From Octopus vulgaris (lineage: Eukaryota): a stretch of 64,000 nt of DNA. This document shows positions 1-64,000 of the stretch, piece after piece. The notes beneath the pieces were generated by a model. That model searched no databases. It was not told the DNA's origin and saw nothing but the letters and a program-made list of their open reading frames with translations. The stretch spans positions 72,602,001-72,666,000 of the forward strand of contig OX597823.1 of the NCBI GenBank assembly GCA_951406725.2, read 5' to 3'. Positions within the stretch are counted from its first letter, which is position 1. Each line of letters begins with the position of its first letter. The position numbers and the translations under genes are program-made.

Positions 1-2129
1 CCGCGCCTCTCGACACGAGAGGCTGAGTGCTGTGAAGGGCCAATCACAGCCGAGGAAGTAATCGAGGTGTTGGGAAAGTGCCCCGGGGAGAAGTCGCCGG
101 GTCTCGATGGTCTGCCCTATGAATTTTATAGAAGTATGCCAAACTTGTTCGGGCACCTGCTGGCTAGCGTCTACGCCAACTGGTAGCAGAATGGGAGAAT
201 TCCCAAGTCTGCGAGCCGGGGGCGGTGACCTTGATCAGGAAGGACCCGAACAAGGGGGACGAGATAGGGAACTTCAGGCCCATAACTCTGTTAAACACAG
301 AGTTAAAGATTCTGGCCAAGGTGCTAGCAAAAAGGTTGGCGCGGGTCGTGGACAAACTTGTCGGGGAAGCGCAAACGTGCGCTATCCCCGGCAGAACGAT
401 CCACGACAATCTCCACCTTATACGCTACTCCTTAGAGAGGGTGGGGAAGCTTTCTGGCGCAGGGGGAGCACTGGTACATTTAGACAAGTCCAAAGCATTT
501 GATAGGGTCGACCATCGGTACCTGGCGGCGGTCCTCGGAGAGGCTGGCCTAGGCCCGACCTTTCGAGGTTGGATCGCTGCTTTGTATAGCGACATCGAGT
601 CTGTAGTCAAGGTGAACGGTTCCTTTTCGAAGCCGTTCAGGATCGAGCGTTCAGTTCGTCAAGGGTGTCCCCTGTCCTCGCTCCTATACGTATTGGCTCT
701 TGAGCCTTTGCTGCGGAAGTTGGAGGCACTAGGGGGCGCGCCGCATGATCTATGGTGTGGAAGAGGAGCTACGGCGTATGCGGATGACACCTCCATCATC
801 GTGGCAGACGAAGGCCAGCTTCCAGTGGTGGAAGAGGCCATAAAAAGCTACGAGGCGGTGGCAGGAGCAAAGGTTAACAAGGACAAGTCGGTCGGTTTGC
901 AACTCGGCACCTGGAGGGGCAAGCCGATGCCGTCCAATAACGTCGTAGGGCGTTGGACGGAAGGTCCTGTTAAGCTGCTCGGAGTCTGGTTCGGGCCAGA
1001 CCTCCAGATTGAGAAAAATTGGAGTGAGGTGGCCAACAAGGTGACCGCTCTAACCCAGACCTGGTCTGGGCGGGCGTTATCCCTGCTAGGGAAGGCGGAG
1101 GTGGTGCAGATGTTTATAGCATCAGTAATCACCTACCGTCTGACCGTGGTGCCTTGCCCCGATTTGTGGCTGAACAAGTTGGAGAGAATCCTTTTCCGAT
1201 TTTTGTGGAAAGGAGGAAAGCCACTTGTAAAGCGCTCTGTCTGCTGCCAGAAACCGCTAAAGGGTGGGCTAGGGATGCCTTGGCTGAGGATGCGAAAACT
1301 CGCGTTAAGGTTGAGGCACCTCTGGCTTTACCTGGATGGAGAGTAGGTGTGGTCGCCGCACGTCCGGTTCTACCTTCCCCAGTTAACATCCCTAACGGAC
1401 ATCGGTGCATGGATCAAGCGGAGACCTAAACTGAGTGAATGGCATTTGGAGTGCCGTCAGGCGCTCCAGCTACTATCTCGGGTGGGCAACGCCGGCAACA
1501 GGAGTTCCACCACGGATTTCTATAGCGGGTTAGTGGAGATTAAGTCCGAAGACGCCTTGGGGGAGACCCTGGGCTACGATGAAAATCAGTTGATCAACCT
1601 GTTCCGGAGGACGTTCGGGCCGGGGTATCTGGATAATTACCAGAAATCCCTAGCCTGGCAGTGTTTCCGTGCGGCTTTACCTGTTCGCGACAAGCTGTCA
1701 AGGCACGGTAGTGCCGTCTCGCCGACATGCCCGCGATGTGAGCAGGATAGGGAGACCGTCTTGCACGCATTCGTGGAGTGTCCGGAGTTATCGGGACTGA
1801 TAGCTTTTGTAGAACAACTGTTTTCAGTGATGGGAAGAGTACAGCTATCAGCTGAGTCTATCATCGAGATTGTGCCGCCCCCTTTCCTTAACAGGGAAAG
1901 AAAGGCTTGTTTTTTCTGTGTAGTAGCCATACTGAAAGAAACAGTATGGAAGACGCGTACGAAAGGTATAGTGACAGGCACCTTTGTCTCCGGCCAGGGG
2001 TTGATTAACTTTTTTAGTTACCACCTCAGTAGCAAAATCAGGCTGGAGAAGAGGTGTCTGTCACGAGATATGTTTGTGAAAAGATGGAAGCCTGTGGCAT
2101 ACAAGATGGGTATGTTTGGCACCAGGTAA
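1..2129 (+). pseudogene. LINE ORF2 (reverse transcriptase + CCHC zinc finger), disrupted
   Basis: Continuous RT-like protein with three lesions: TAG at 184-186, a frameshift in the G-run near 218-224, and TAG at 1344-1346. Natural stop at 2127-2129. Confidence 0.9.
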
Positions 2130-2983: not shown

Positions 2984-3024
<41 letters not shown>

Positions 3025-3228
3025 ATAAGTTTGTGCCCCCAACATCACATGACAACCGATACTGGTGTGTTTACGTCCCCGTAACTTAGCGGTTCGGCAA
3101 AAAGGGGCCGATAGAATAAGTACTAGGTTTACAAAGAATAAGTCCTGGGGTCGATTTGCTCGACTAAAGCCGGTGCTCTTGCATGGCCGTAGTCAAATGA
3201 CTGAAACAAGTAAAAAGAGTAAAAGAGC
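2776..3228 (+). mobile_element. SINE family A, full length
   Basis: gcgcaggagtggctgtgtggtaag head through aaaagagtaaaagag tail; preceded by (TA)n at 2715-2775. Confidence 0.93.
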
Positions 3229-3824
3229 ATATATATAATTGCGCGCGCGTTTATGTTTGTCAGAGTGTGTGTGCGTACGTGTATCTGAGTGCTTATGAAA
3301 ATAATATCCATTTGCTGCAAAAGCTGTATCATTTTCATTGGCTTATATATTTGCTAATTTTATCACCTTACATGTACCAACTATTACATGTACTCGGTTA
3401 TTCCTTCATGCAACCATATGAGCATACACAAAATATCCCCGAATTACAAAAGTATTTTTATTCATGTTATGTGTAATTAACTGCCTCCCATTTTATATCT
3501 TGTGCTCTGGCCTTCGATATCAACTATTATATAGACCGCCTGTTTTCTTTCTGTAATTTTATACTGCAATAATTTTGTCCTTACCGATGCGAATAATATA
3601 CCAGTCAAACCAGAGGCATATTTTATTTAAATAAATGTCATTATTACATTGTCTAATTTCTAATTGTGCCTGAGAACAATTCATTCAATGGTGAACATAT
3701 TAACAAATTAGACAAACTACACACACATAAGTGGGGTTAGACAATACATAGATGTGTATGTGTGCGTGTCTGTGTATGTATTTATGTATACACGCATAAG
3801 TTTAAACACACAGGGCCCCCCCCC

Positions 3825-3873
<49 letters not shown>

Positions 3874-4117
3874 TATAATTACAAAAACACACGTCTGAAT
3901 ACATAGAAATTATGTTTGCATCTTTTATTCTATATATTTACTTTGGTCGCTCTTCACGAGGCATAGGTAATCGAAGATATTCGCTCATTTTTTTCTATTT
4001 AGTCACAGACGTGGTCCATTCACGCACATCGAGAGTTACAAAGAGAAGTACACTCCGATTCTACCTGTTTTATTATAATTTTACCGTAAATCTCTCACGT
4101 TGAAACCGTATTTTATT

Positions 4118-4420: not shown

Positions 4421-5541
4421 GCGCGCATTCACGATAATACCATTTAACACGTGTGTCAATCTTTGTATGTTGGTCTCTTCCTCACTCTCTATATTGTCTT
4501 TACAACTATATGCATGCTCACACATTTAATAATAATCAATCTTTTGTGGCCTCTGTCGTATTTTCTTTTATAATTAGAGGGACATATAAACCCATACCAA
4601 TACGCCATATGGCCTTTCTCTCAACTTCTAATTTCCTTGAATATTTTTACCTTCACATTCTAAGTCAGTCAAATCACGCCATCAAAACTTCAGGGGCGTT
4701 TATATCGAAGTTCATAATCTTATGTGTTCCACTTAATTAAACTGAAGCATACAAATATACATTAATCCCATCTTCCATATTCTATGAGAAACAAACATTG
4801 ATCATGCGATAAAACGTGACCTTAAATTGGTTCACCGAGACAATAGATTTTACAGTTCGGTTCAAACACAAAAAATCTATATTTAAATGCACCATTTATT
4901 GAATTTTACTCAACACTTAAAACTAAACAATTCTCCATAAAGAAAACATATCAAGCAATCAAATAGGCAGAAGAACAATTTAGGAATCATCTAACATCGA
5001 AATGAGTTTCCTATTAAATTAATATTTACAATTATAATGTTGAATGTCTAAAGGTGTTTCTTATATTTTCCATTTTTCCATTGTTAGGGATATCTTTCAT
5101 TTTTTTCAGTGGACGTATTATAAGAAAGAATTAATTACTTATTCAAAAAGATATTGAAAATAATTATAGTCACGTTGCTTTATAGAAATATGTAGGACAC
5201 ACTGTATTTTAAAAATATTTAATAAAAAGTGTGTTTAGTTATGTCTTTATATTTTTTCTTTTTTGATTTCCAAGAACCAACAATTATATTTCAGTTTCTA
5301 TTTCCATTCAAATAATTTTCAATGTCTACCTACCCAAATATGTGAATGTGTCTTTATATATGTCAATGAGTTATACATGTCTGTATCTATCAAGCTATCA
5401 CTTGTAAGCTTCTCCGACTGTATATCTCTCTCTCTCTCTCCTCTGTGTACACACACATAAATACATAAGCACAAATATATGTAACATATATATTAATATA
5501 AATCCTTATGTTTATATATACATATACACATAGACATATTT

Positions 5542-5602: not shown

Positions 5603-5956
5603 AGACGCGGGAGTGGCTGTGTTTTAAGTAGCTAGCTTATCAGCCACATGGTTCCGGGTTCAGTTCCACTGCGTGGCACTTTGTACGGGTGACATCTAAT
5701 ATAGCCTTCGGCCTACAAAGCCTTGTGGCTGGATTTGGAGGACTGGTACCGAGAGAAACCCGTCATATGTGTGTGTATGTTCCGCGTGTCTATGTTTGTC
5801 TCTCTACCAACGCTTGATAAACGATCATGGTGTGTATAGCGGTTCGATAAAAGACAACGATAGAATAATTACTGGACTTACAATGAATAAGTCCTGGGTC
5901 GATTGTTCGACAAAAGGCGGTGCTCCAGCATGACTGAAACAAATAAAAGAATAAAA
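5603..5956 (+). mobile_element. SINE family A, diverged
   Basis: gagtggctgt...ggttccgggttcagtt head and ggcggtgctccagcatgactgaaac tail. Confidence 0.88.
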
Positions 5957-5960
5957 CAAC

Positions 5961-6019
<59 letters not shown>

Positions 6020-6027
6020 ACATGCAT

Positions 6028-6064
<37 letters not shown>

Positions 6065-6106
6065 AAATGTACAAATATATATACATACATGCATACATTA
6101 CATATA

Positions 6107-6150
<44 letters not shown>

Positions 6151-6297
6151 TAAATGGTGATACAGTATGGGCATATTGTTGAAATCCAACGAACGTTTAT
6201 ACAAATATACTTTTTCAGGAGATACGGTAGACCTATTATAATGGGTAATACTACGTGTACTTTTAATTTTGTGATGTAATATTAGGGCTAACAATGT

Positions 6298-6392
6298 TTG
6301 CGGCTGAAGAGAGCTTTAAACCATCTTTTATATCATTAATATACTGATGTAATAACAGATTGTTTATAAAGCTTGAAACACGTGTACCGCGA
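6298..6392 (+). ncRNA. Minimal type-I hammerhead ribozyme motif (Penelope-type)
   Basis: Stem I ttgcgg/ccgcga; core CTGAAGA 6304-6310; stem II gagctttaaac/gtttataaagctt; GAAAC 6375-6379; palindromic loop ACGT; cleavage triplet GTA 6384-6386. Confidence 0.75.
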
Positions 6393-6500
6393 TATCATTT
6401 GTGTTCTGTTTTCAATTTATGTTTCATATATTTTTCACCTCTGCCACTATTTGGCATGTACAGTTGCTTACACTTATCAAGTATTGACTCTAAATTTTTA

Positions 6501-6552
<52 letters not shown>

Positions 6553-10301: not shown

Positions 10302-10722
10302 TTTTGTTTCACTTGTTTCACTCATTTGACTGTGGCCATGCTGGAGCACTGACTTTAGTCGAGCAAATCGACCCCAGGTCTTATTCTTTGTTAGCCTAGT
10401 ACTTATTCTATCGGGGTCTTGTGCCGAACCGTCGGGTTACGGGGACGTAAAAACACCAGCATCGGTTGTCAAGCGATGTTGGGGGGGGGGGGGGGGGCAA
10501 ACTCAGACACACAAACACACAAACACACACACATACATATATATATATGCATATATACGGACGGGCTTCTTTCAGTTTCCCTCTACCAAATCCACTCACA
10601 AGGCTTTAGTCGGCTGGAGGCTATAGTAGAAGACACTTGCCCAACATGCCACGCTGTGGGACTGAACCCAGAACCATGTGGTTCATAAGCAAGCTACTTA
10701 CCACACAGCCACTCCTACGCCT
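10302..10722 (-). mobile_element. SINE family A, full length
   Basis: Reverse complement of the 2776-3228 copy. Confidence 0.92.
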
Positions 10723-14000: not shown

Positions 14001-16562
14001 TGCATATTGATGGCTTATGCAGAATCTGTTCATATGTGCCTAACATCTTATACATGTGGGTCACGCTTATGCTTCCTAGTTTCCAGAAGTGAACACAAAA
14101 ATATTTGGTTCTAAAGAAAGAAATATTGCACAGCTTGTTAGAAACGTACATAAAACCCACAACGGCACAACACAAACGAGGCTACTCAATCTCTGTTGAT
14201 CTTTTCTGACAACACCGGTTATATGGCATAAATAAAAATGGATTCTTCTCTGAATATGCTATTTACGTAATACATCCGCTAAGGCCAATCCAACACTCAC
14301 CTCTTATCTGTCTACTCTCTCAAACAGATGTCATATAAAAAGGGGAGAATTTCTCTGATGATGAAGTATGACAGGGTCAGAATATTCACCTATTAGAACG
14401 CATTAGAAATGAAGAGATACGTAATTTTTGGGTCCTTCCTCTTCTGCGTTCACCTCGTGAATTAATTCAAATTGGCGGACATAAGCACGTTTCAACAAAA
14501 GAACCAGTAGTTTTGTTAGGTGATTAATCAGGGTAAGATTCGATTAAGAGGTCACACAATAAAGTCTGAATACGGTTGTATCTTCCAATTCCCTTACATC
14601 AATGAATCGCATGTACAAGGAGGAGATATTTTCTGGTTATGACCTACAATAGTAATCAGCATATGCACTTTCGAATGTCTTAGAAAACATTAGAAATAAA
14701 AAGATAAGTTCTGCGTACTCATAAATTATTAGAGCAGCGATATACCAAATAAATCGTTTATCTCTGTAACAAGGATTGGTAATACTGTTTAGTATTTAGA
14801 TAAATGTTATTAATATTTTTTTATCGAACCATCTGTCTATCTATCTATCTATCTATCTATTTATCTATCTATTTATTTATCTATCTATCTGTCTAATAAC
14901 CTAGATCTGGGCTTTAGCGATTTAAAGTAAAAAAGTGGAAATAATGAAATAGTGTTAACAATCAAATAAATAAATGGGGAAATGGGAAATGGGAAATGAG
15001 AAGTACATGTATCTGGAGAGATAAGAATGGAAAAATAAGAGAACAAAGAAAAGAAAGCGGAAATGATGAGTGAAAGAAAGGAGTATAGGAAGCATGGAAG
15101 AAGAAAATAGGAAAATATGACGAGAAAAATATTATTTATTATAAGCTAGGAGGTTGTCGATCAATAGTGCAAATATGGATATGATTTGAAATTTGGAACA
15201 GAAAATGTTGAAAGGAAATCTATTTTTTCGGGGTGGAGGATACGCTGTTTACAATTGAGATTAAGTGTATCAATATATTCGTTTTATAAATTCTACTGAA
15301 GTTATACGTGGAGTTACTTTCCTTCACATATAACTTCCTGTGAGCACATATAGATCGCAAAATAAGCTTAAATATGAAAGCATGCATACACAAACACATT
15401 ATATATGCATATCTATTCTTATAAATGTCCCTAAACATATATGCTTGCACACTTATACATGCACATATATAGTATGAAGGCAAATTAACTGCAGTTACTA
15501 TGGGAGAAAATTCCCTCTTATGGTTAAAGGTATAAAAATATTATATCCGCCCATTGCTGTTTCCTGCCGTATTCCCAGACGCATTTGTAGCTTCTTGGCT
15601 GTTATCAATAAGAAATACTGAAAGTATATATCCCTGGAGAGATTTTAAAGCCGTAACTAAAACACAGTCAACCACACTGACTGAGTTTCACTATTAGATC
15701 GCCAGCTCGGAGGAAGTTCAATATTATCAGTGCCGTGTAGTGTTTATTTCAGTTTCTTCCCTACAACTTCTGTGGGGTAATACTGGACAGATATGGTGTT
15801 TTCACCACCCCGTACCATAAGTGAGAATTTTTCATGCATGATAATTGCAGTGGATTTGCATTTAGAAGTTGAAATATCATTGGCTATTGAGTTACACATG
15901 AACGTATTCTGATTTATTATTGAAAATGTGTAAATATATCGTCTTGGATATGCAATGTTTCGATTGAACGTTTATTCTGAATATGTTTATCTTCACGTGT
16001 TGAAAACAAATTATGTCAACATTTTAGAGCAACAATCCTGTCAAACGTATCGTGACACAAGCCTAAAATAATTTGAGTACTTGTATAATCTTCGTTTAAA
16101 CTCCGACCAGTCCCGCGTATGTGATGTTTACGTTACGCTGTTTAAGTTTACAGGGCTTTTTTTCCAACTGACATGCATTCGGATTACTTCATAAGAATGT
16201 CCCACCAACTTGCTGCTCATTTTGTGTGAATGTGTGTATGCGCGTTTGTGTGTGTGTGTGTGTGTGCGCGCGCGCATGCGTGCATGCATTACGTGAGGAA
16301 AATATACGTAGTGTCTGTTTTCAACAGTAATTTTCTCAAAACTTTTCTATAGCTCAAGTTGGAAGAGAAAAGTTAACAATTCGGATTGAATGTTTGAATA
16401 TCAGATACTAAATTAAAATTCATATCAAGTAAAAAGAGTTGTGTGAACCATATCTTATTCAGCAGTTTTTCTGTAAAAAACGTAAGTCATTTGTTACATT
16501 CCCGTTTGAATACGATAGTAATGGCATCATTTAATCTTTTCATCACCCTAAATCTCTCAAAT

Positions 16563-16923
16563 CATGTTTGAAATATTTCGATTTCAGAAAATATGCCGCT
16601 TTTCCCAGTTTCTCTGAAATCGTCATGTATAAGATACAATAACTCATGCAATTTGTGGGAGAGATTCTGCTAAAATATGGTATTAAGTAGGACGTAAGTG
16701 CCTCAATTCCGAATTCGGAAAACGTGACATATAAAATGCTAAAGCATGTTTAAAATATTTCGATTTCAGAAAATATGCCGCTTTTCCCAGTTTCTCCGAA
16801 ATCGTCATGTATAAGATACAATAACTCATGCAATTTGTGGGAGAGATTCTGCGAAAATATAGTATTAAGTAGGACGTAAGTGCCTCAATTCCGAATTCGG
16901 AAAACGTGGCATATAAAATGCTA
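16563..16923. repeat. Tandem duplication, 2 x 182 bp
   Basis: Copies start at 16563 and 16745 and differ by only a few substitutions. Confidence 0.95.
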
Positions 16924-20314: not shown

Positions 20315-20711
20315 TTTACTCATTTTTACTCTTTTACTTGTTTCATTTATTTGACTGCTTCCATGCTGGAGCACCGTTTTTAGTCGAGTAAATCTACCAC
20401 AGGACTTATTCTTTGTAAACCTAGTTCTTATTCTATCGGTCTCTTTAGCCGAAGTTACGGGGACGTAAACATACCACCATCTGTTGTCAAGCGGTGCTGG
20501 GGTGGTGAGACAAACACAGATACACATACATATTTATATATATATATATACATATACACGAGAGTCTTCCTTCAGTTTCTGTCTACCAAATCCTCTCACA
20601 AGGCTTTGGTCGGTCCGAGGCTTAAGTAGAAGACAGTTGTACAAGGTGCCACGTAGTGGGAATGAGCCCGGAACCGTGTTGTTGGTAAGCAAGCTACTTA
20701 CCATACAGCCA
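20315..20711 (-). mobile_element. SINE family A, diverged
   Basis: Reverse-complement similarity to family A along its length. Confidence 0.88.
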
Positions 20712-21819: not shown

Positions 21820-21904
<85 letters not shown>

Positions 21905-21915
21905 TACTAATAATA
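21613..21915 (+). repeat. tRNA-like SINE head followed by a long (AAT)n microsatellite
   Basis: gttaagagcgcgcactactaaccacaaggttccgagttcgattcc (B box), then (AAT/AAC)n at 21675-21915. Confidence 0.75.
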
Positions 21916-21917
21916 CC

Positions 21918-22855
21918 GTGTATACTTTCAATGCTGATATCAGAAAGGAGTTCGGACTGAGAAAATGTGGTATGTTAGTCTTGAACAGAAGCAAAATCAA
22001 ATGTATGGACGGACTATCGATACCTTCGGGAGAGGATATGAAGCAGATAGAAGAGGCGGGTTATAAGTACTTGGGGATTTGGGAAATGAATAAATTAGAG
22101 AAGGAAATTACAGAAAAATTTAAGGTGGACTACATGAGGCAGACAGGGACTTATCCCTAAGACGAAATCAAACAGACAGAATAAGATTGAAGCTATCAAC
22201 ACCTGGGCGGTTTTACTCCTTAAACATGGAGCAGAGCTAATCGCATGGTTAGTAGACAAACTAAAGGGCTTATTGACAAAGACAACGAAGTAGCGAACTA
22301 GATATGGGATACTCCACCCAAAAAGTGACACAGGCAGATTATATGTACAAAGAAAAAAGGAGAAGAGGACTTATTGGACGCGAACACAGCATTGGTGCCG
22401 ATGAAAACAACACAGTATTGTATGTAAAAATGCTACATAACCTCAATTATTGGAAGTAAGAACGTCAGGCTTGTGTAGGTTGAAAGATTACAAAGATAAA
22501 TCATTGTACAATCAATTGAAAACGTATGAAAATGAAAATAGATGGGTAAAGAAAAGTATGTATGGACAATTCCATAGGGATGTTGATGATCAGACAGACA
22601 GAGAAAAAAAGTGGCTGTGGATGACTAAAAGTGATTTAAAACCAGAAACAGTGGCTCTAAGCTGTGCTTCTGAAGAGCAAGCACTAAGGACAAACTACAT
22701 AAAATACAGGGTAGACAACACATCAAAAAATTGATAAGTGCAGAATCTATGGACAAAATTGTGAAACCGTATGGCATATTACCAGCCAATGTACGCCACT
22801 AGTCCAGAAGGAATATAAGAAACGCCACGACATTATAGCAAGGCTTGTCTATTGG
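21918..22855 (+). mobile_element. R4/Dong-clade non-LTR retrotransposon fragment
   Basis: DIRKEFGLRKC...YKYLG, W..KSMYGQF, SDLKPET...EQALRTNY and zinc knuckle CRI...ETVWHITSQC...YKKRHD. Confidence 0.85.
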
Positions 22856-25410: not shown

Positions 25411-26761
25411 GGTTAATAACTACAATAACAATCTGACGTTAAGCAGCAGATTGAACCCTTAGTTGTTTCTGCTAGAAATACCAATACGAAACCTAGTGAA
25501 AATGTAATACAAACAACAGAATTTAACAAACAAGATGGAAAACTGAAATAGTACTACGACACTTACATATGAATATATAACAATTTAGTATATATGTCCC
25601 CCGAATTCTTTACTTCATTCATACTATTGTGTAATCCTGTTGTTTACCTGTAATTCCTGCAACATATAATTACGTATACATACACAGCTACATTTCCAAT
25701 AAGAAATAGTATTTAATAATATACAATATTCAAATATTATCGGAGGACAACACTATTAGCCATTTATCAGAAGGAGATGTGGTCTCTATACCGATTCAAA
25801 CTTCAGCTGTTCATAGTCGTAAGTCAAAGAAAATAACGTTACAGGTAGTGTCTCTCGAATTTCTTGTAAAGATAACGGGATTTTATTCCGCCAGTATCTA
25901 TTTGAAACTCTAATATAAATTCGTAGAGTATATAAGCTTTGTACTTTATGGACAATTTTTTCTGTTCTTGTAAAACTTCAAAACAATCGTACATATTTTG
26001 TAGCAAATATGAGCATAAAACTGAATTGCTTGATGATTTCCCTGAACGTCTTGCTGACACCAGTGATGAACAAACAGAAACAGTTTTATAGAAAACTCTA
26101 TGAAAGTCTATGGATCTATTATCTTAAAATATAGACGTGATGGTAATATATGGAGGTCATATTCGGATTCAGTGTTTCTAACATCTCCTACTTCAGATCC
26201 AAAGTTTTATAACAACAGTGAATGATATATATATATATATATTGGGCTTGTTATGATTTAAATAATTTGACTGTCTTGTGATAGGAGTGGTACAGGACTG
26301 GCTGTTAATGCTGTAAGTATATCTGTGTTATATCTGTGTTGAATTACGCAGAATGTGCAATATTGGCTATCTTATTTGATCTAATACGGATTCTGTAGCG
26401 TATATTTTGTGTGTTGTGCAAAATCTGCACGCTGTTCTCTTGTACTATTCAGAAATAAAATTACTTGTGTAGGATAAAGATAGTACCTACCAAAATAATT
26501 CTGTGGGCTATTTGTTTGGTAGAGAGCCAAAGAATATTTACATTATTCTCTTTCTCTAAATGCTATTTGATATAATATCTATTGCAACTACTGTCACTAT
26601 TTCCAATTTCCGTCTTTTACGCTTTCCTACCGTGCATTCAAATTATTTTGATTTCAAGATTCTTCGTTTGATATAAACAAGGCGTCTTCAGGGCGATGAT
26701 TTCATCTGTAGAGTTCGAGATGCGTATAAGATTAGTAAGATTTGTATTTCTGTCATTCATT

Positions 26762-27619: not shown

Positions 27620-29975
27620 TAATTAATACCTTTCTCGCGCACTTTTCAATGTACAACAAAATTCTTGCTGCTCCCAATTTGATCCTGTCAGGTGTTATAC
27701 GGTAACTTTCGTAGGACTGGGCAGCTAAGAATATTGCGTTCAATTATCTGTTTGTATTGGTTACATAATCTTCCTCTTTTGGTTACCATTGTTACTTTAT
27801 GCGACAAAGGTTTGATCCATATTTTGTGTCTGGTGAAAATGCTTTGAACTTTTGTTGTCCTTTACTCAAATTTTGTTCACTTTTGTCATATATCAGCAAC
27901 TTCATTTTCTATCGATAGAAATAAATATATAATGGAAAACATGTGCACAAGTCTTCAGGCTAAAGAACAACATTTTTAGAGTTTCTCAGAAATACTCAAA
28001 CTTAGAAGTGCTGAAAGTGAAGCTCTAACAATGTTTTGTTTTTTTCCCTAGAGAATGTTTGTCTTGTTTCAGGTGTGCCAGATGAAAATGGTGTGCAGAA
28101 TGGTCAAGTGGTTGGAGATCACTTATTAATGGGAGCATACACACCTGTATTTTGCGAAGTGAAACGACAATCACCAAAAACCTTGATCCTAGATTGGTTT
28201 TACTCTGAGAGGCGCAATCCATTTAGTTTTAATTCTGAATCAATTTTGATTCGGTTTCCATCTTCTATATTAGTGTCTTCTTTCAGTAGTTCTTTCTTCA
28301 TCCAGTCCCACCTATGTTCTGCAGCAACTTCGATTGTCACAACATGCAATTGATTGTGTAATCCTTTAGTGGGCAGCGTTACTTCGTGTTGTTTTTATAT
28401 GTTTTGTTTTTCCTTTTCTTTGCTTTAAATACGTCCTCATCCCCTCATCCCCAACTGACACTAGCAAGGCCTTACTTTGGGATAGGTATTTCCATAAACC
28501 TCGAAGCGTAATATGTAAGCAGCTTCCCACATTCATCAGTCCCCTTTCACTATTTGCTTCCTTGGTGTATAGGCAGTCATTGTCTGCACGTTGATAATGG
28601 GTTTCATTTATTTTCTTCCTGTAAAGTCATTTAGCTGATCCAATGTTCCCTTTAGAATTCCAGCGCCATATCAAACCACTTCGATTTCGCACGTTTATTG
28701 TCGAAATTATGTTTCTGGTTTAACATACATATATCTTCTTAACATATTTGACTATATGTGTCGTCTGTACATAGGTCTTCTGACATACATATGTCTTCTG
28801 TCCTGACAAGTTTTCCTCGTCTATCACAATCGAAGCACATTTTGAGAGTCCAAACTCATCTCAATATCATTCGAGAAAATCCGCACAGACTGGACTAAGC
28901 TGTCCAGTTTTGCCATGCTTTTTGCGAACAGCTTCAAGTCATCCATGAATAGCAGATGGTAAAGTTTTCTTTTACCACTTCCTCGATCATACCCAATAGT
29001 TGTCTTCGGCAGTGGTGCACTTTAGCTGATCTTTCTCAGCACAAAGATCAATGGGAATATACTATCTTCCTAGAAGATTCCTGTCCTAATTTTCACCTCC
29101 CAAAATACCTGATTCCCTGCTGTCAACTCAGTTCTTCAATATTTCATTGTTCCATTTAAGGTATCTTATGTTTTCTGCCCCTCCATACATTCCCATAGTT
29201 CTTATCCAAGAGCGCGGGTTGACATTGTATGTCTTACAATAACCAATGCATGTGATGCTCAGATTTATGTGCCTTCTCTTGCAGAGGTTGTAATGATTAC
29301 TTTATAAATTGACAGTTGATATTTAATTTCCCTGGTCGTCGGTAGACCCCTTTCTGTTCAAAAAGTTACTTTTATATAAGAACCCATACAGTTCACCGGA
29401 CAAACCAACTGACATTATTTTCTACGCAATAGCAGTAGACACGTTCTTGGTCGAAAGTTGTATACAGTATATACCCATTTCATGATCCTTGGCTTATCGT
29501 AATGTCCTTCCCTTTGTTATCCACATGGGTACTTAACATTGCTGCGAGCTGTAGGGCTATACTTTCATGGTGTCCTCTCAGATTTTTCACCCATTAACCT
29601 TGAACACCATCTGGCATAGTTCTCTTCCAGTTCGAGATTTTATCATTTCTGTATTTATTTCAGTTGTCTTGACCTTGTAAAGTTTTTGAAATATTTTGGA
29701 TTTATCGTTATGCTTTGCAGGTTGATCCAAGCTTCCTCCCCAGAATAACATGCTTTCGTCTGCATCAGGTATCAATGTTAGGTGTTATTGCAAATCTAGT
29801 TTCTCAAACAGTTTCTTTCTGATTGCCTTCAAACAATCTGTTCTACCTGAATTGTTTTGCTCTATTGCCATATCTTTCCTGTTTTGCCCTCGTTGCAACT
29901 ACTCTTTGATATCACTTCGCACCCTCTATCTTTTAACTTATGTTCTTTCAAGTCTTATTCTTATGCTTACGTTTT
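27620..29975 (-). mobile_element. R4/Dong-clade non-LTR retrotransposon, decayed
   Basis: Minus-strand HLLFMDDLKLFAK (FMDD 28938-28949), FSNDIEMSLDSQKCA and C-terminal LGAARIL near 27660-27680. Confidence 0.82.
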
Positions 29976-33412: not shown

Positions 33413-33830
33413 TGGCGAAGGCATGACTGTGTGATTAAGAACCTCGCTTTGTAGCCACATGGTTCCGGGATCAATCCCACCTCGACAAAGTTTAACTTGG
33501 CCCAGAACTAACCAATAATTCTTCAATGAATTTCATAGCGAATACTGTTTGCAATCCTGTGTTATACACAAATTCACGCGCGCTCGCACACACACATAGA
33601 CAAACACACAAACACACGTGCATGTATGCATGAGTGTGTTTGTACTTGTGCCTTACCGCTTGACAAGCTCTGTTGGTTTACTCTTACTTTCACGTAGCAT
33701 AGCCGTTCGGCAAAAAATACCGACAGAATAAGAACCGGACTTACGAAGAAATAAGAACTGGGATAGATTCCTTACATTAAACTTTTGAAGGTGAGGTGCA
33801 ATAAAGCATGGCCGCAATAAAGATTAAAGA
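33413..33830 (+). mobile_element. SINE family A-related, old copy
   Basis: ccacatggttccgggatcaatccc, gttcggcaaaaaataccgacagaataag and gcatggccgca. Confidence 0.75.
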
Positions 33831-43941: not shown

Positions 43942-45491
43942 TTTCTGTCGCACTCACATGCACAAACGCATGCATATATGCTGTGTAAAGTCAGCAAATA
44001 TTAAAGAAAAAGAAGAAACCGTGATGAAGAACGTTTGGCAAGCGTGGTATTAATTTAATACTTAAGAATTTGAAGTGAGAAATTCCAATGACTCGAACGT
44101 TAGATTTTAGAAATTAAAAAAAATAGAAAAGTATAGGAACAGAGAGGGAAGCAAACATATTTGGAGTATTAAAGAAAATAGTAATTTTTGTTAGAAAACA
44201 CATTACAAAAGAAGATATATTTCTTACAAAAAAAAAACTAATGTAAAGAATGCAGAAGGGAGGCGGTCTAACCACAGAATCCTACTCTTCTATGTATGAG
44301 TAGAGAAGACATAGAGGGGCAGGTATACAAGCGTCTATATATCTGAGTATGTCTGGAAGTGGACATTAAGGACAAATGTATAGTTGCGTGTGGGTGTGTA
44401 GTATTATATCTCAATACGTGTTTGCAAGAATGAAACTATTGCAGCGTTTGTATGTAGGATAAGTGGATATTAATATATATACGTGTAATTATTCGCTAGG
44501 TAGTGTGAAAGTATCTGAGGATGTGAGAGCGTGTGTCGTGGAATAAAGATGCAGAAGAAGAACAAGGGAGGAAAATAGTAAGGAAGTATATAGAATTGAA
44601 TTTATGCGTGTGCAAATGAGCAAACTCAGACATATATGGATAGAAAATTGTTTTTTTTTTTCAAAATGCGTGCCTGAGAAACACAGACAGAATCGTATTG
44701 AACTCGGAAAAGATCGTTAAATTGTTTTAAAAAGGTCATAAATTTGGTGCAATCTATTAAAAATGGTGAAATATTAATGATGCAAGATGAAAACAAGACT
44801 TTAATTGCACAAGTGCTGTTGGAAGAGCGAAAAGTTGTACACACATACATCCCTATCTAACGACATATATTAGCTGCTATCATATTATAAACACTAACAT
44901 ATTTATGTATTTTTAAGTTATAGCAAAGTATACACACAATAAATCTGCTATCATATTAAATTTCACGCAATGTAAATTAAGAAATTTATATCAACATCAC
45001 AATAAGAGTTGATATGGAAATCATTGCTGTGGTGCTTATTCACACTACTTTCCTAACAAAGTGCGTCTATTAGCATATGTTGGCAAAGTCAGTTAATCGT
45101 TCACGTTGCACGGATTAACAACTACTTGATATAGAAATATTTCTAGAAAAAGAGATACAATTCTACAATATATCCATTGTGTCTCAATTTTGATGAATCT
45201 GTCTTTTAGTAATCTATACATTTCTGTAGAATACATGCTGTATTGTAGACAAATTATTTTCATAACATTTTCCAGTTAGGTTGTCAGTAATGGTATTATG
45301 AAGTAAAATATATCCTTCAGAAAATTGGTAGCATATTGCATGGTATGCTTCCAGGTGTTTGCTATAATAAATATCAGATGCAGCTGGCAGAAAACTACAC
45401 TAAAAGTAGAAATACTGAATATATGGATTGGGGCACTAATATATAACGAGGCAACTCAGTAACTTCAGTCAATGTTTTTTATAATTTATAC

Positions 45492-46179: not shown

Positions 46180-48722
46180 TTTGCAGTAAATATTCGCTGC
46201 TCTTCAATAGAAACAGGAAATTAAATATACTCGTAACTCAGATTTAATATTCAAATTAAAAATTAAGATACATTTTCCAAAAACATCTGAAACAGTGTAC
46301 GTTTTGTTTAGTATTTAAATACAATTATTCATTTTATCATGTTTGCATAAAATGAGGGATATTTGTGAATATAGTGTGAGTTGATAAAATCATAATTTTT
46401 ATATTTATGTTTCCTACATATTTTAAAATTCTAAGTTGTTACTTTTTTTTATTTCGAAGGCTTTGATGATAGAAAGTTCAAAAGAAAACTGATTCAATAA
46501 TAAAACGCGCATATTTGTAATAAACATGTTTATAATTCTTTATAAAACGTATATGCTCAGCTAATAAAAGAGAGTGGATATTGTAAAATATCAGAAAAAT
46601 ATTTCTGGTTTATTTGGATAAAACTCCTCGTTTAAAATTACACCTGTACATGTCAACATGTAAACAGAAAGCAAACACTTACACACACATGCACACACAT
46701 ACGTACACACACACATCCACCTTCCATAAATGGAATGTTGCTGTCACAAAACTTGCTGAGAAATTGAGTGCATGACGTAAATTTTTTACAGTACTACGAA
46801 TTTATGGTTTCAGCTAAATATTTCCTTTGTTTCTGCTTATCCATGAAAAGTATCTGTACAAATCAGTCTATCTACCTACATGTCTGTCTTTCAATCTATC
46901 AATCTGTTTTTCTATCTATTTAATCTATCTCCATACATACATATATATATATATACGTGTGTGTGTGAATATCAATGTATGTATGAATGCATGTATGTAT
47001 GCATGTATGTATGTATGTATGTATGTATATATGTATGTATGTATGTATGCATGTATGCATACACAGGATGTTGTAGTTCTCTCGCCGCAAGGAACACATA
47101 ACAACAGCAATTTCCGATATGACCTCAATGTTATTTCAGGCTGAGCGGTTTGAATTAATCACCGTCACATTTACATATAACAATTTAACATTGTTTATTT
47201 AAATCGAACTCAAATGATTGCTATCTTTAATAGGTTCGCTATTACATCTATATATATATTTAACTTCAAGGTCCCTCAAGTTTCATATGTTTGCACAAAT
47301 AACCTCGCTCTTCAGTCCTATCAAATCACAGAGAACAATTATAAAGCTAATTGTACTGAACTGGCAGTGCAGCACTCAAATTATAAAATGCATTCATGAA
47401 AAAGAGAGGAGACCGGGAATAAATATACTAAATACGGGATTGGTATGTTTGATACAGGTACGATGTTTCAGTTAACACTAATGACGGTATAGAGTCATAT
47501 ACAAAATGTCTTTGTACCTTTCTTCGCTTCATCAGGTCCGATCTCGGTCTGCACACCATGATAAACGGACTAACTATATAAAAAATAAGATCCAATGCGC
47601 AAGTTATTCATACAAGAAACAAGACCTCTTTACGAATTTATATTATAGAATCTTGAATACTTAAATGTATTTCAGTCACGGAAACATATGCATCATATGC
47701 ACATCAGAACATACCGAAATGCACAAGCTCAGACACATAAGAATTCAGGTATGCGTACGTGCGTACCTGTCTGTATATGTGTGGTTATTATGTACGTGTT
47801 TGCAACGTATGTGTTAGCCCGTGTATTGTAGCAAATTCTTTACACTATTTTATTTTACAAATAGTATATCATTTTACAAACGAACATATTATGAAGATTA
47901 TATTATCTTATAAACGATGTTTAAATTCTTAGAATTCTAAAAACCTAATCATTTCGAGGCACTAAGAATTCTCATTTTGAATATGATTTTTCTTCAAACA
48001 TTATTTTCTTGGTTTCCCATATAAATACTTACCATACGCTTTCCAAAAATAAATGGAAGGTTAATTATCACTGAAGGTGACTTGCCAATCTTTATTGCAC
48101 TCGTACAATTTCTACCAGTATGAGATTGGTACTAGCTTATGCGAACTTGAAACCCATCGTACGTTTTTATATGAAACTCGTGCAAGATGGGTTACTTTAT
48201 TTATTTGCCCAATTTTTTATATTCCAGGATTTGTTTCTATTATTTCAGAAACAGTGAACTGTTTAAAAATGCTATAAAAGACTATCTTCCATATATCTCT
48301 TTACTGTTTTCTTTGCCAAAATATTTACTCCTTTCTTTCTAAGTCCATAATACAATAATATAGTTGTAATAAAAAAAAGTCGTAGTTGCTTTGTGCCGAA
48401 AAGTTTAAAAGGACTTGAACAGGAGGTACATATAGATAATAAATTAAATACTATATGGTTCAAAACGAATGCTAAAGGCATTGTATTTAAAATGATAAAA
48501 AAAAGACTATTGAACTGAATATAAGAATATAGATTACATAATATATAAAAATTTATACGATGCACTTCGTTCCATTAAACTACAATCGACTTCAGTAATG
48601 CAAAACAGTATACAGCATTGATTATTGCTAGTCTGCTCTCTTTATTACAACAGAATACATCTGAAGGAACGGTTGCGTATTCGCATGCACGTCCCGCCCT
48701 CCCAAGCACACTCATATGCATT

Positions 48723-58721: not shown

Positions 58722-58725
<4 letters not shown>

Positions 58726-59187
58726 AAATATTAGGAAATAAATCCAAACTTACAGGGACAAATCAGATTTAGGATTGAATCCAATTTTATAGTAAAATAT
58801 TATATTATATTAACTTAGAGATAAAACCACTATTAGGCAAATCAAACAATGAAAAACTTAAGCCAATACATAAAATTAATTTATTTATATTATTTTAAAT
58901 ATATATCAAAAGTATTAAAAGTTTAATAAAAGATAATGAGTAAAACACTACGATCGTTTCAAGGCTGTCCAATTCGTAATAATTCGAATTATGGTTACAG
59001 TCAATCTTCAGGTAATTGAAATATTTATGTTAGCGAGGTTTAGCAATGCTAAACCTCGCTATCTTTTATCAAACTTTTAAACTTTTAATACTTTTGATAT
59101 ATATTTAAAATAATATAAATGAAATAATTTTATGTATTGGCTTAAGTTTTTCATTGTTTGATTTGCCTAATAGTGGTTTTATCTCTA

Positions 59188-59190
<3 letters not shown>
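58722..59190 (-). mobile_element. Non-coding fold-back element (Penelope pLTR-like) between (TA)n tracts
   Basis: Inverted arms 58815-58935 and 59060-59188; internal hammerhead motif; perfect 15-bp hairpin 59031-59061. Confidence 0.7.
58944..59016 (-). ncRNA. Minimal type-I hammerhead ribozyme motif
   Basis: Minus strand attac CTGAAGA [gactgt..cc..aattcg / cgaatt gg acagcc] GAAAC GATC GTA gtgtt. Palindromic loop GATC; stem I imperfect. Confidence 0.62.
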
Positions 59191-59770: not shown

Positions 59771-61244
59771 AAGTGACCTGTTGTGGATATTGTAGCAGTG
59801 ATTGAAATTGTGAAATTGTTCTGAATGAATTCCTGCTTACTGATTTACCTGAATATATCACTTTTAATATTTGCGTGGGTATTATTCTAAGGACCTTGTA
59901 GCAGTGTCATTTGTGGTTGAATTATTCAAAAGTGGTCTATATTTTACGATAAAATATGATTCTTTCCTAATGCGCTAATTATATGTTGCATCGTCCCTGA
60001 ATTTATAGAGGGGAAACATTTTGAAGTTGAGTTTTTCGTTAGTGGCGCTAATGTCGATGTATTCGCTAAATGATAATTTTCTGCATTTCCGAATTGCTCA
60101 ACTATTTATGAAATGATCCTCGTATGCTGTTACTATATTTAGTCAAAAATACTGAATAAAACAGAAGCTTTTGCTAGCTCATAAAACTACTACATATGCA
60201 AAAGGAGGGACTGAGTAGTAATTATCCGATCCTTGCTTACCGGGTGACGACGTCGATAATAGATTATGAAAGCAACTCCCTCCTTTATTAAATTCCAGCG
60301 TCGTCTCTGGACAGCAATCAGAATTTCATGCACTTGGAGCAGTGGTAATTTGCACCTTGCTTTATATATCATAAAGTTGAACTGCCCATCCGTCAGATAT
60401 TCAAATATTAGATAAATACCACAAACATTATTTACAAAACATCAGTGGAGTGGACTGGAAGTACTAAATCCATTGCTTTGTTACTTCCAACAAATTTAAC
60501 CTCTCTTACATTGAATCGTTTTTTCATACGCAAAAGTTGATGCAATTGTCATATGGTGTCACAAGTAATTTTAGAAGCCCTTCTCTCGGATACGAAGATA
60601 AAATACAGTCGAATTTATTCATTTCTAATGCACTCAGAAAACATTTGATTTAAAAAACATCTCTTTCTGTAATTTTATACCGACGTAGAAGGATAGTATC
60701 CATGCACTTGATGCATCTTTGAGGCTAAGAAACGGAAAGGAAGGTAGGAACCAGGACTCGTCGGTCATTGATGAAGAATGCAACCCATTTATCTTTAAAC
60801 CATGGATTTGCTTACAACTTATCACACTTTTGGATACGTTTCTATCCGTAGAAACTTATCAGAACATTGTTAGAATAATATGCATATGGTTAAAAAATAC
60901 ACATAAAGAGGAGATCTGTTTCCAACAAATTGCGGTTGTTACACGAATTTTATAAATGTTGGAGAGAATATGAAATAATAGTTGTCTGGTAATAATACTG
61001 ACATGATAGATTTTTAAACTAAAATTCCTAAAATGGATAGGGTATTTCGAAGAATTGCTTTGATACAATGGTAGAACACCCGTGATATCCACGGAAGTTC
61101 GAGTTCGAGTTCACAGTCAGACTTCGACTTCTATCCAAAAGCGCTTAAGATTTTTCAGCTCAATTTGCACATTGTATTATTTAATGCTTTTTGAGAGCCC
61201 CGAGATCCGCTATTCCAGAACACACACACACATATATATGTATA

Positions 61245-63911: not shown

Positions 63912-64000
63912 AGGCGTAGGAGTGGCTGTGTGGTAAGTAGCTTGCTTACGAACCACATGGTTCCGGGTTCAGTCCCACTGCGTAGCACCTTCGCCAAGTG
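63912..64000 (+). mobile_element. SINE family A head (runs off window)
   Basis: aggcgtaggagtggctgtgtggtaagtagcttgc...ggttccgggttcagtccc. Confidence 0.92.

Follow-up and report, generated by a model that had tools for sequence, protein, structure and literature searches.

A complete type I hammerhead with a 64-nt stem II in the likely 3′ end of a Penelope-like retrotransposon from octopus DNA

A hammerhead ribozyme between TA arrays

The DNA analysed here, a 64,000-nt window from Octopus vulgaris, is repeat-rich animal DNA with many microsatellites. Near its start, at positions 6149-6501, lies a repeat copy that carries a complete type I hammerhead ribozyme and belongs to a many-copy repeat family of two organisms. 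The features of the locus, and two further sets of features elsewhere in the window, are as follows.

5963-6148, unstranded: TA-rich microsatellite array, upstream flank (repeat scan)
6149-6501, + strand: 353-bp repeat copy, likely a solo pLTR, left by a Penelope-like element as its 5′-truncated 3′ end; bounds from the sequence and the flanking arrays
6150-6182, + strand: ten codons and a TGA, possibly, on weak grounds, the last codons of a parent ORF (translation, loose ends)
6298-6303, + strand: hammerhead stem I, 5′ strand (descriptor match and fold)
6304-6310, + strand: core C3-U4-G5-A6-N7-G8-A9 (CUGAAGA)
6311-6374, + strand: stem II, 64 nt, consisting of a G-U base pair and 7 bp, a 2-nt bulge, 3 bp and then a variable apical part (fold)
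6375-6386, + strand: core G12-A13-A14-A15.1, with the 8-nt palindrome of the intermolecular stem III at 6378-6385; cleavage is predicted to fall 3′ of A6386
6387-6392, + strand: hammerhead stem I, 3′ strand
6432-6501, + strand: 3′ tail that many other copies are without, those copies joining (TA)n at about 6425-6431 (loose ends in run contigs)
6502-6549, unstranded: (TA)24, downstream flank (repeat scan)
58723-59190, − strand: second (TA)n-bounded element, of a different family, with a type I core at 59011, a 44-nt stem II and a palindromic stem III
2348-2674, 2777-2950, 3001-3185, 10337-10715, 20338-20711, 33424-33480 and 63919-63991: matches to a SINE-like repeat

Every hammerhead part named in a preliminary description of this DNA (stem I, CUGAAGA, stem II, GAAAC-ACGU-GUA and the TA flanks) is present where it was placed. 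Stem I comprises 6 bp, one of them G-U, formed by 6298-6303 with 6387-6392. In the second half of the motif GAAA occupies 6375-6378, C15.2-G16.2 closes the ACGU loop, U6385 follows and A6386 is H17. The conserved core is complete (C3-A9, G12-A15.1, U16.1-H17), and it is flanked by helices I and II with helix I open, as in type I hammerheads. The base of stem II is a G-U pair instead of the consensus G10.1-C11.1. The term minimal, used in the preliminary description, suits stem III but not stem II with its 64 nt; similarly, the loop described as palindromic is so, but the palindrome measures 8 nt (6378-6385) and reaches beyond the 4-nt loop.

A type I descriptor finds this hammerhead as its sole match on both strands of the window. 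Rfam hammerhead models give no match in three scans, even at E 10. Using dinucleotide shuffles of the window in 1-kb blocks as the chance level (n=200), no shuffle yields a type I hammerhead whose stems match 6+6 bp; relaxing the setting to 4+4 bp with a short stem III gives 1/200, and the loosest setting 11/200. The ribozyme region 6290-6398 folds with a z of -2.49, equalled or bettered by 3 of 200 shuffles, and the entire 353 nt with a z of -0.55 (29 of 100 shuffles equal or better). A bacterial promoter scan is at chance level and irrelevant here.

As a monomer, the active fold has an energy of -20.4 kcal/mol against -22.1 kcal/mol for the best fold, a cost of 1.7 kcal/mol. Unconstrained cofolding of two copies produces a double hammerhead (-55.9 versus 2 x -22.1 kcal/mol) in which the stem I strands are swapped and an 8-bp intermolecular stem III forms. 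Ordering the four loop bases in all 24 ways puts the natural order in third place (gain -11.7 kcal/mol); gains of at least 10 kcal/mol are confined to 5 of the 24, palindrome-forming orders only, and 19 gain 7.3 or less. These models predict cleavage, after A6386, in the dimer alone, and both the double-hammerhead cofold and the 8-nt palindrome agree with the Penelope-type, dimer-requiring hammerhead first proposed. Such a double hammerhead has been described for the metazoan hammerheads of Penelope-like elements (PLEs), which cleave poorly and as dimers only (PMC4209133, PMC6765202). Dimer cleavage is attributed also to Lunse et al. (as cited in PMC6765202), and 8 of 9 Xenopus dimers tested gave no cleavage (preprint 10.64898/2026.07.22.740005).

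The nearest other hammerhead lies 52.7 kb away on the opposite strand and has a different palindrome, so the 6149-6501 copy has no cis partner in the window. Barring pairing in trans with a second transcript, this lone copy is probably no more than an inert relic.

The second hammerhead, whose core at 59011 (−) was found by a relaxed scan, sits in an element (58723-59190) that also lies between TA arrays and has no clear sequence in common with 6149-6501. It has its own 8-nt palindrome and a weak stem I of just 3 bp, and is placed between 112-nt inverted arms that are 98% complementary; the inverted arm is without the ribozyme segment, and a perfect 15-bp hairpin at 59031-59061 marks the inversion point. 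The element shows the inverted-arm layout of PLEs directly, and it suggests that this genome contains more than a single case of a long stem II. Weak cores at 47535 (−), 42525 (+), 52124 (−), 26691 (−) and 22670 (+) have no convincing stems and were set aside. The core at 26691 lies inside a TA-bounded segment of 522 nt and could be a decayed relic.

Throughout the window, runs of (TA)8 or longer bound 15 segments of 99-869 nt, about 10% of its length; TA on both sides is therefore frequent, and TA flanks alone are weak evidence. Other repeats include an L1/Tx1-like LINE ORF2 (RVT_1, zf-RVT) at 168-2129 (+), GC-rich relative to the rest and with one in-frame stop at about 1344-1346, and decayed fragments of RTE-like LINE reverse transcriptase at about 28400-29600 (−) and 21900-22160 (+). 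A SINE-like repeat at 5604-5962 (+), often beside TA runs, has the seven further matches given above; we take it to resemble an octopus tRNA-derived SINE, and a literature search did not find its motif. A 182-bp unit forms a two-copy tandem at 16559-16923 (96% matches). A 24-residue Pfam WH_Egal match at 44629-44856 (−), with E 2.6e-5 under the family cut-off, is possibly a small exon.

A multi-copy family in public sequencing runs

Parts of the 6149-6501 element occur in 20 of 21 listed public runs (11 studies, three organisms), none of which contains more than 0.46 of its words. DNA runs contain at most 0.25, those of the organism of runs X1 and X4 0.18-0.21, and none of the runs with parts of the element is on record as RNA. 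Four runs were compared at 80% likeness, a filter that favours the conserved parts of the element: X1 and X4 from organism A, X2 and X17 from organism B. Related contigs matched to 6149-6501 number 50 in X1, 734 in X4, 611 in X2 and 45 in X17, and a self-search finds no further copy within the window (best E 0.22). The sequence first called unique is thus unique in the window but belongs to a multi-copy family in the public runs; all four runs speak against the single-copy state that was to have told against a mobile element. A family-specific pattern has 0 matches in metagenome contigs and 0 in viral contigs. A looser core pattern matches 99 metagenome loci, none of them (0/99) with both stems, and all were regarded as chance.

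Summed contig depth, which is not a copy number and is read only as many more sequences sharing the ribozyme than the flanks, is strongly uneven and reaches its maxima over both ribozyme halves. It stands in X2 at 60,170 for 6309-6321, 320,421 for 6374-6386, 376 for 6218-6230 and about 3,200-4,100 for 6166-6191, and in X4 at 173,013 for 6309-6321 and 216,743 for 6374-6386 versus 678-1,761 for 6166-6217.

Conservation follows the ribozyme as well. The 55 positions that define it (stem I, core, proximal stem II, palindrome) hold 1 of the 40 listed variants, 77 having passed the filter, where 6.2 would be expected (P 0.007). The core is therefore more conserved than the flanks, the comparison that the preliminary description had named as one of its tests. 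The sole listed variant inside these positions is G6311, and no core position is among the 40 listed of 77. G6311 is replaced by U in 94% of X2 depth and in most X17 contig depth, which puts a U-U at the foot of stem II. Apical stem II (6322-6361) holds 8 of the 40 listed variants (of 77), which indicates that no single structure is imposed on the apical part. The proximal helices are nearly invariant and the apical stem is variable; the variants are given by position and unphased, and no compensatory pair is readable among the 40 listed of 77.

The 6149-6501 copy itself differs from nearly all matched contigs at 6178, 6281, 6287, 6336, 6397, 6451, 6458 and 6464. Such flank differences would be expected of an aged copy or of a different species. 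Two X1 contigs are identical to it, over 6156-6260 (105 nt) and 6231-6317 (87 nt); given the low word share in the DNA runs of the same organism, the insertion may be polymorphic.

Copy ends were read from 24 of 158 loose ends and 32 of 1454 contig pieces, those listed. On the upstream side one X17 contig has 31 nt of sequence before 6149 and two X1 contigs have a median of 133 nt before 6155, in neither case TA; the loose ends of the two runs match at 20 of 24 overlapping letters, compared by hand. One X4 contig continues upstream with 36 letters. The upstream continuation of other copies thus consists of three contigs from X1 and X17, runs only guessed to be RNA, and the one X4 contig. Being non-TA and in mutual agreement, the X1 and X17 ends indicate that other copies carry a longer element, the 6149-6501 copy being 5′-shortened.

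On the downstream side, among the loose ends listed, (TA)n joins at about 6425 in 16 X4 contigs, whose loose ends lie behind 6412, behind 6431 in 21 X2 and 2 X17 contigs, and behind 6497-6498 in X1 and X17. There are accordingly two classes of 3′ end, at about 6425-6431 and at 6497-6498; stem I to (TA)n spans 109 nt in the 6149-6501 copy and about 35-40 nt in copies that end near 6425-6431. Insertion into (TA)n, as originally suggested, is upheld by this copy and by the 3′ loose ends of other copies. Several differing 5′ flanks precede the ribozyme, with loose ends before 6288, 6297 and 6299. All four listed joints (4/4) are opposite-strand joints, one contig each, as in the truncated inverted copies known from PLEs (PMC8557442). 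Of the tandem copies to be looked for there is no sign: the window holds no tandem copy of 6149-6501, and no head-to-tail joint is among the joints listed in any of the four runs, contigs being able to show presence rather than absence.

Relation to known hammerhead-bearing elements

PLE hammerheads, their cleavage as dimers and (TA)n targeting are already published; the unusual feature of 6149-6501 is solely its 64-nt stem II, missed by Rfam. Like the PLE type I hammerheads with a small palindromic helix III in PMC4209133, it is of type I with an intact core and a 6-bp helix I. It further shares with them a palindromic helix III too weak for the monomer, AU-rich flanks and an occurrence mostly as single dispersed copies from truncated PLEs. 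It differs in helix II, which has 64 nt versus about 23 nt in the longest of the 56 aligned examples (judged by eye), in having G-U or U-U where the 2014 consensus has an extra base and G10.1-C11.1, and in its perfect palindrome of 8 nt.

Thirteen distinct PLE hammerheads that we fetched have 11-24 nt between the core halves versus 64 in 6149-6501. In 4 of these 13 stem II begins with a U-U, as it does in many of the Hydra-clade rows of File S2 of PMC8557442. The same file contains a Selaginella entry, marked as deviating, with about 53 nt between the core halves, and a long stem II thus has precedent.

Hydra-clade PLEs are (TA)n-targeted, carry a hammerhead near the 3′ end and frequently show, at the foot of stem II, a U that faces U or G (Craig et al. 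2021, PMC8557442). With these and the Neptune-type C-terminal EN+ PLEs the 6149-6501 copy has in common (TA)n targets and a hammerhead placed some 100-200 nt before the 3′ end (PMC8557442), together with U or G after the core and U before it at the base of stem II, and a stem III of the form AC..GU (PMC8557442 and fetched loci L100-L108). Its stem II is 2.5-6 times longer than theirs, and the ten codons at its 5′ end are unlike the Hydra-type C-termini seen in the fetched loci. No sequence match exists between 6149-6501 and the Hydra-1_Obim hammerhead, nor any DNA or protein likeness between L100-L108 and the window; the 3′ regions of Naiad_Obim and Naiad_Ovul show no likeness to 6149-6501 by eye or in motif searches. 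Naiad PLEs do share its (TA)n targets (PMC8557442). Eight of them carry a half-core label, their second half lying at a distance of 35-50 nt, and a long-stem-II hammerhead would look like such half-cores to the 7-17-nt descriptor of that study.

Loci L100-L108 are nine matches to a PLE RT motif in MAG contigs, used as anatomy controls; the motif has no match in viral contigs. These contigs are filed under bacterial MAGs, and contain animal-type PLEs (Hydra- and Neptune-like) with hammerheads that are probably host DNA. At L100/L101 an inverted PLE pair directly adjoins bacterial-looking genes (regulator, oxidoreductase) on a 492-kb contig, through misassembly or insertion, and L104 has an inverted hammerhead pair overlapping at 4532/4558. 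ORF ends were measured for six loci, leaving out L100 and L101 (broken end), L105 (hammerhead not found) and L106. In all six the ORF stop is followed by 90-203 nt and then the hammerhead, and in 3 of the 6 (TA)n lies 65-162 nt beyond.

The equivalent distances in the window are 121 nt from stop to core, if 6180-6182 is the stop, and 198 nt to (TA)n. The upstream loose ends of other copies are stop-free in the frame of 6150-6179, which closes at TGA 6180-6182. Three of the four differences between these loose ends would alter an amino acid, which gives no sign of coding constraint, and another of their frames likewise closes in a shared stop; for both reasons we offer an ORF end at 6150-6182 as a possibility only. 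No RT or GIY-YIG ORF is present in the 6149-6501 copy or in the 150 of 283 window frames that were scanned, and these frames contain no host gene. Six PLE proteins have no match in the window by tblastn, and no single contig in the four runs spans the whole element.

Octopus PLEs are known (PMC13282606, PMC8967140); the main text of PMC13282606 makes no mention of ribozymes. Rfam hammerheads are present in giant squid (PMC6962438). In the open-access literature we found no description of octopus PLE hammerheads with so long a stem II.

Origin of the element and significance

The results described above make it probable that 6149-6501 is a solo pLTR, the 3′ end of a Penelope-like retrotransposon that targets (TA)n, truncated on its 5′ side and with a ribozyme predicted to act only as a dimer. 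The non-TA upstream continuation, the 3′ ends in (TA)n and the exclusively inverted joints together favour a solo pLTR over a tandem retrozyme. Of the two alternatives named in the preliminary description, the solo pLTR is therefore the best reading, and the self-contained, retrozyme-like unit of about 350 bp is less supported. Membership of the PLEs is likely, although no ORF is linked to the copy; the PLE traits come from few contigs, namely three with upstream continuation, four single-contig opposite-strand joints and the two classes of 3′ end.

A life cycle consistent with such an origin can be outlined. A full-length parent with an RT and GIY-YIG ORF would be transcribed from partial-tandem copies, and the two hammerheads of one transcript would pair, cut after A6386 and release the element RNA. 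The endonuclease of the element would then nick (TA)n, with reverse transcription beginning at the 3′ end. If reverse transcription mostly ended early, short tails like 6149-6501 would be left behind.

The strongest competing explanation, which we regard as rather unlikely, is a dedicated non-autonomous element, either a non-LTR retrozyme monomer or a PLE derivative with an internal deletion, somewhat longer than 353 nt, spreading as a small linear or circular RNA by means of the enzymes of a PLE. Animal non-LTR retrozymes (PMC7229834; 2026 preprint by Li, Clavereau and Pollet) resemble 6149-6501 in size, in their type I hammerhead and in their kinship with PLEs; like them the copy is without an ORF, and its 353 nt fall inside the retrozyme range of about 170-400 nt (PMC7229834). 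Solo monomers are frequent in retrozyme families (preprint 10.64898/2026.07.22.740005), the ribozyme part is far commoner in the runs than the 5′ part, and the upstream loose ends, linked to no ORF, show no coding constraint. Unlike the non-LTR retrozymes, however, 6149-6501 shows no tandem copy in the window and no head-to-tail joint among those listed in the four runs, although a unit longer than the compared stretch would hide one. Its 353 nt are no more self-paired than shuffles, where retrozymes are highly self-paired, and it has no short helix II of the canonical kind to bring loop 1 and loop 2 into contact. Other copies extend further on the 5′ side, and several different 5′ flanks share the ribozyme.

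That the hammerhead belongs to a non-PLE repeat, SINE-like or another retroelement with a PLE-style ribozyme, is improbable. Such a repeat would account for the want of a linked PLE ORF, and SINE-like hammerhead repeats do occur in schistosomes (PMC6765202). Yet neither a poly(A) tail nor a tRNA-like head is visible in 6149-6501, the family's (TA)n 3′ junctions, inverted joints and optional 3′ tail are traits of PLEs, and the layout of its core agrees with PLE hammerheads.

It is more improbable still that the host has retained this copy to act, within a transcript, as a ribozyme in cis or in trans, as might be argued from the intact core amid several flank differences from nearly all contigs and from the two X1 contigs that match without difference. 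No host gene appears in the 150 frames scanned, X1 is just guessed to be RNA, the DNA runs contain at most 0.25 of the copy's words, and little selection after insertion is required to explain an intact 55-nt core in a copy diverged by about 10%. A chance arrangement of AT-rich sequence, with which the failure of Rfam would agree, is refuted by the shuffles (0/200), by conservation across the repeat family and by the 99 chance matches in metagenomes, none with both stems.

As the probable solo pLTR of a PLE, 6149-6501 contributes a probable cephalopod case to a class already in print. Its predicted 8-bp intermolecular stem III provides a convenient construct for asking whether PLE hammerheads cut in trans. 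Since standard models miss motifs with a long stem II, hammerhead counts in such genomes may be too low, and statements that some PLE clades have no hammerhead may likewise understate them. A broader proposal, which we put forward as speculative and doubt more than we credit, is that of a PLE hammerhead lineage with a 44-64-nt stem II, invisible to Rfam and to published descriptors, that this genome would contain in a great number of copies from two or more unrelated families. In it the module would spread as a short non-autonomous element of its own, and the perfect 8-nt palindrome would permit dispersed transcripts to pair and cut one another in trans. If it were true, real hammerheads would by that blind spot also be overlooked in some PLEs now classed as half-cores.
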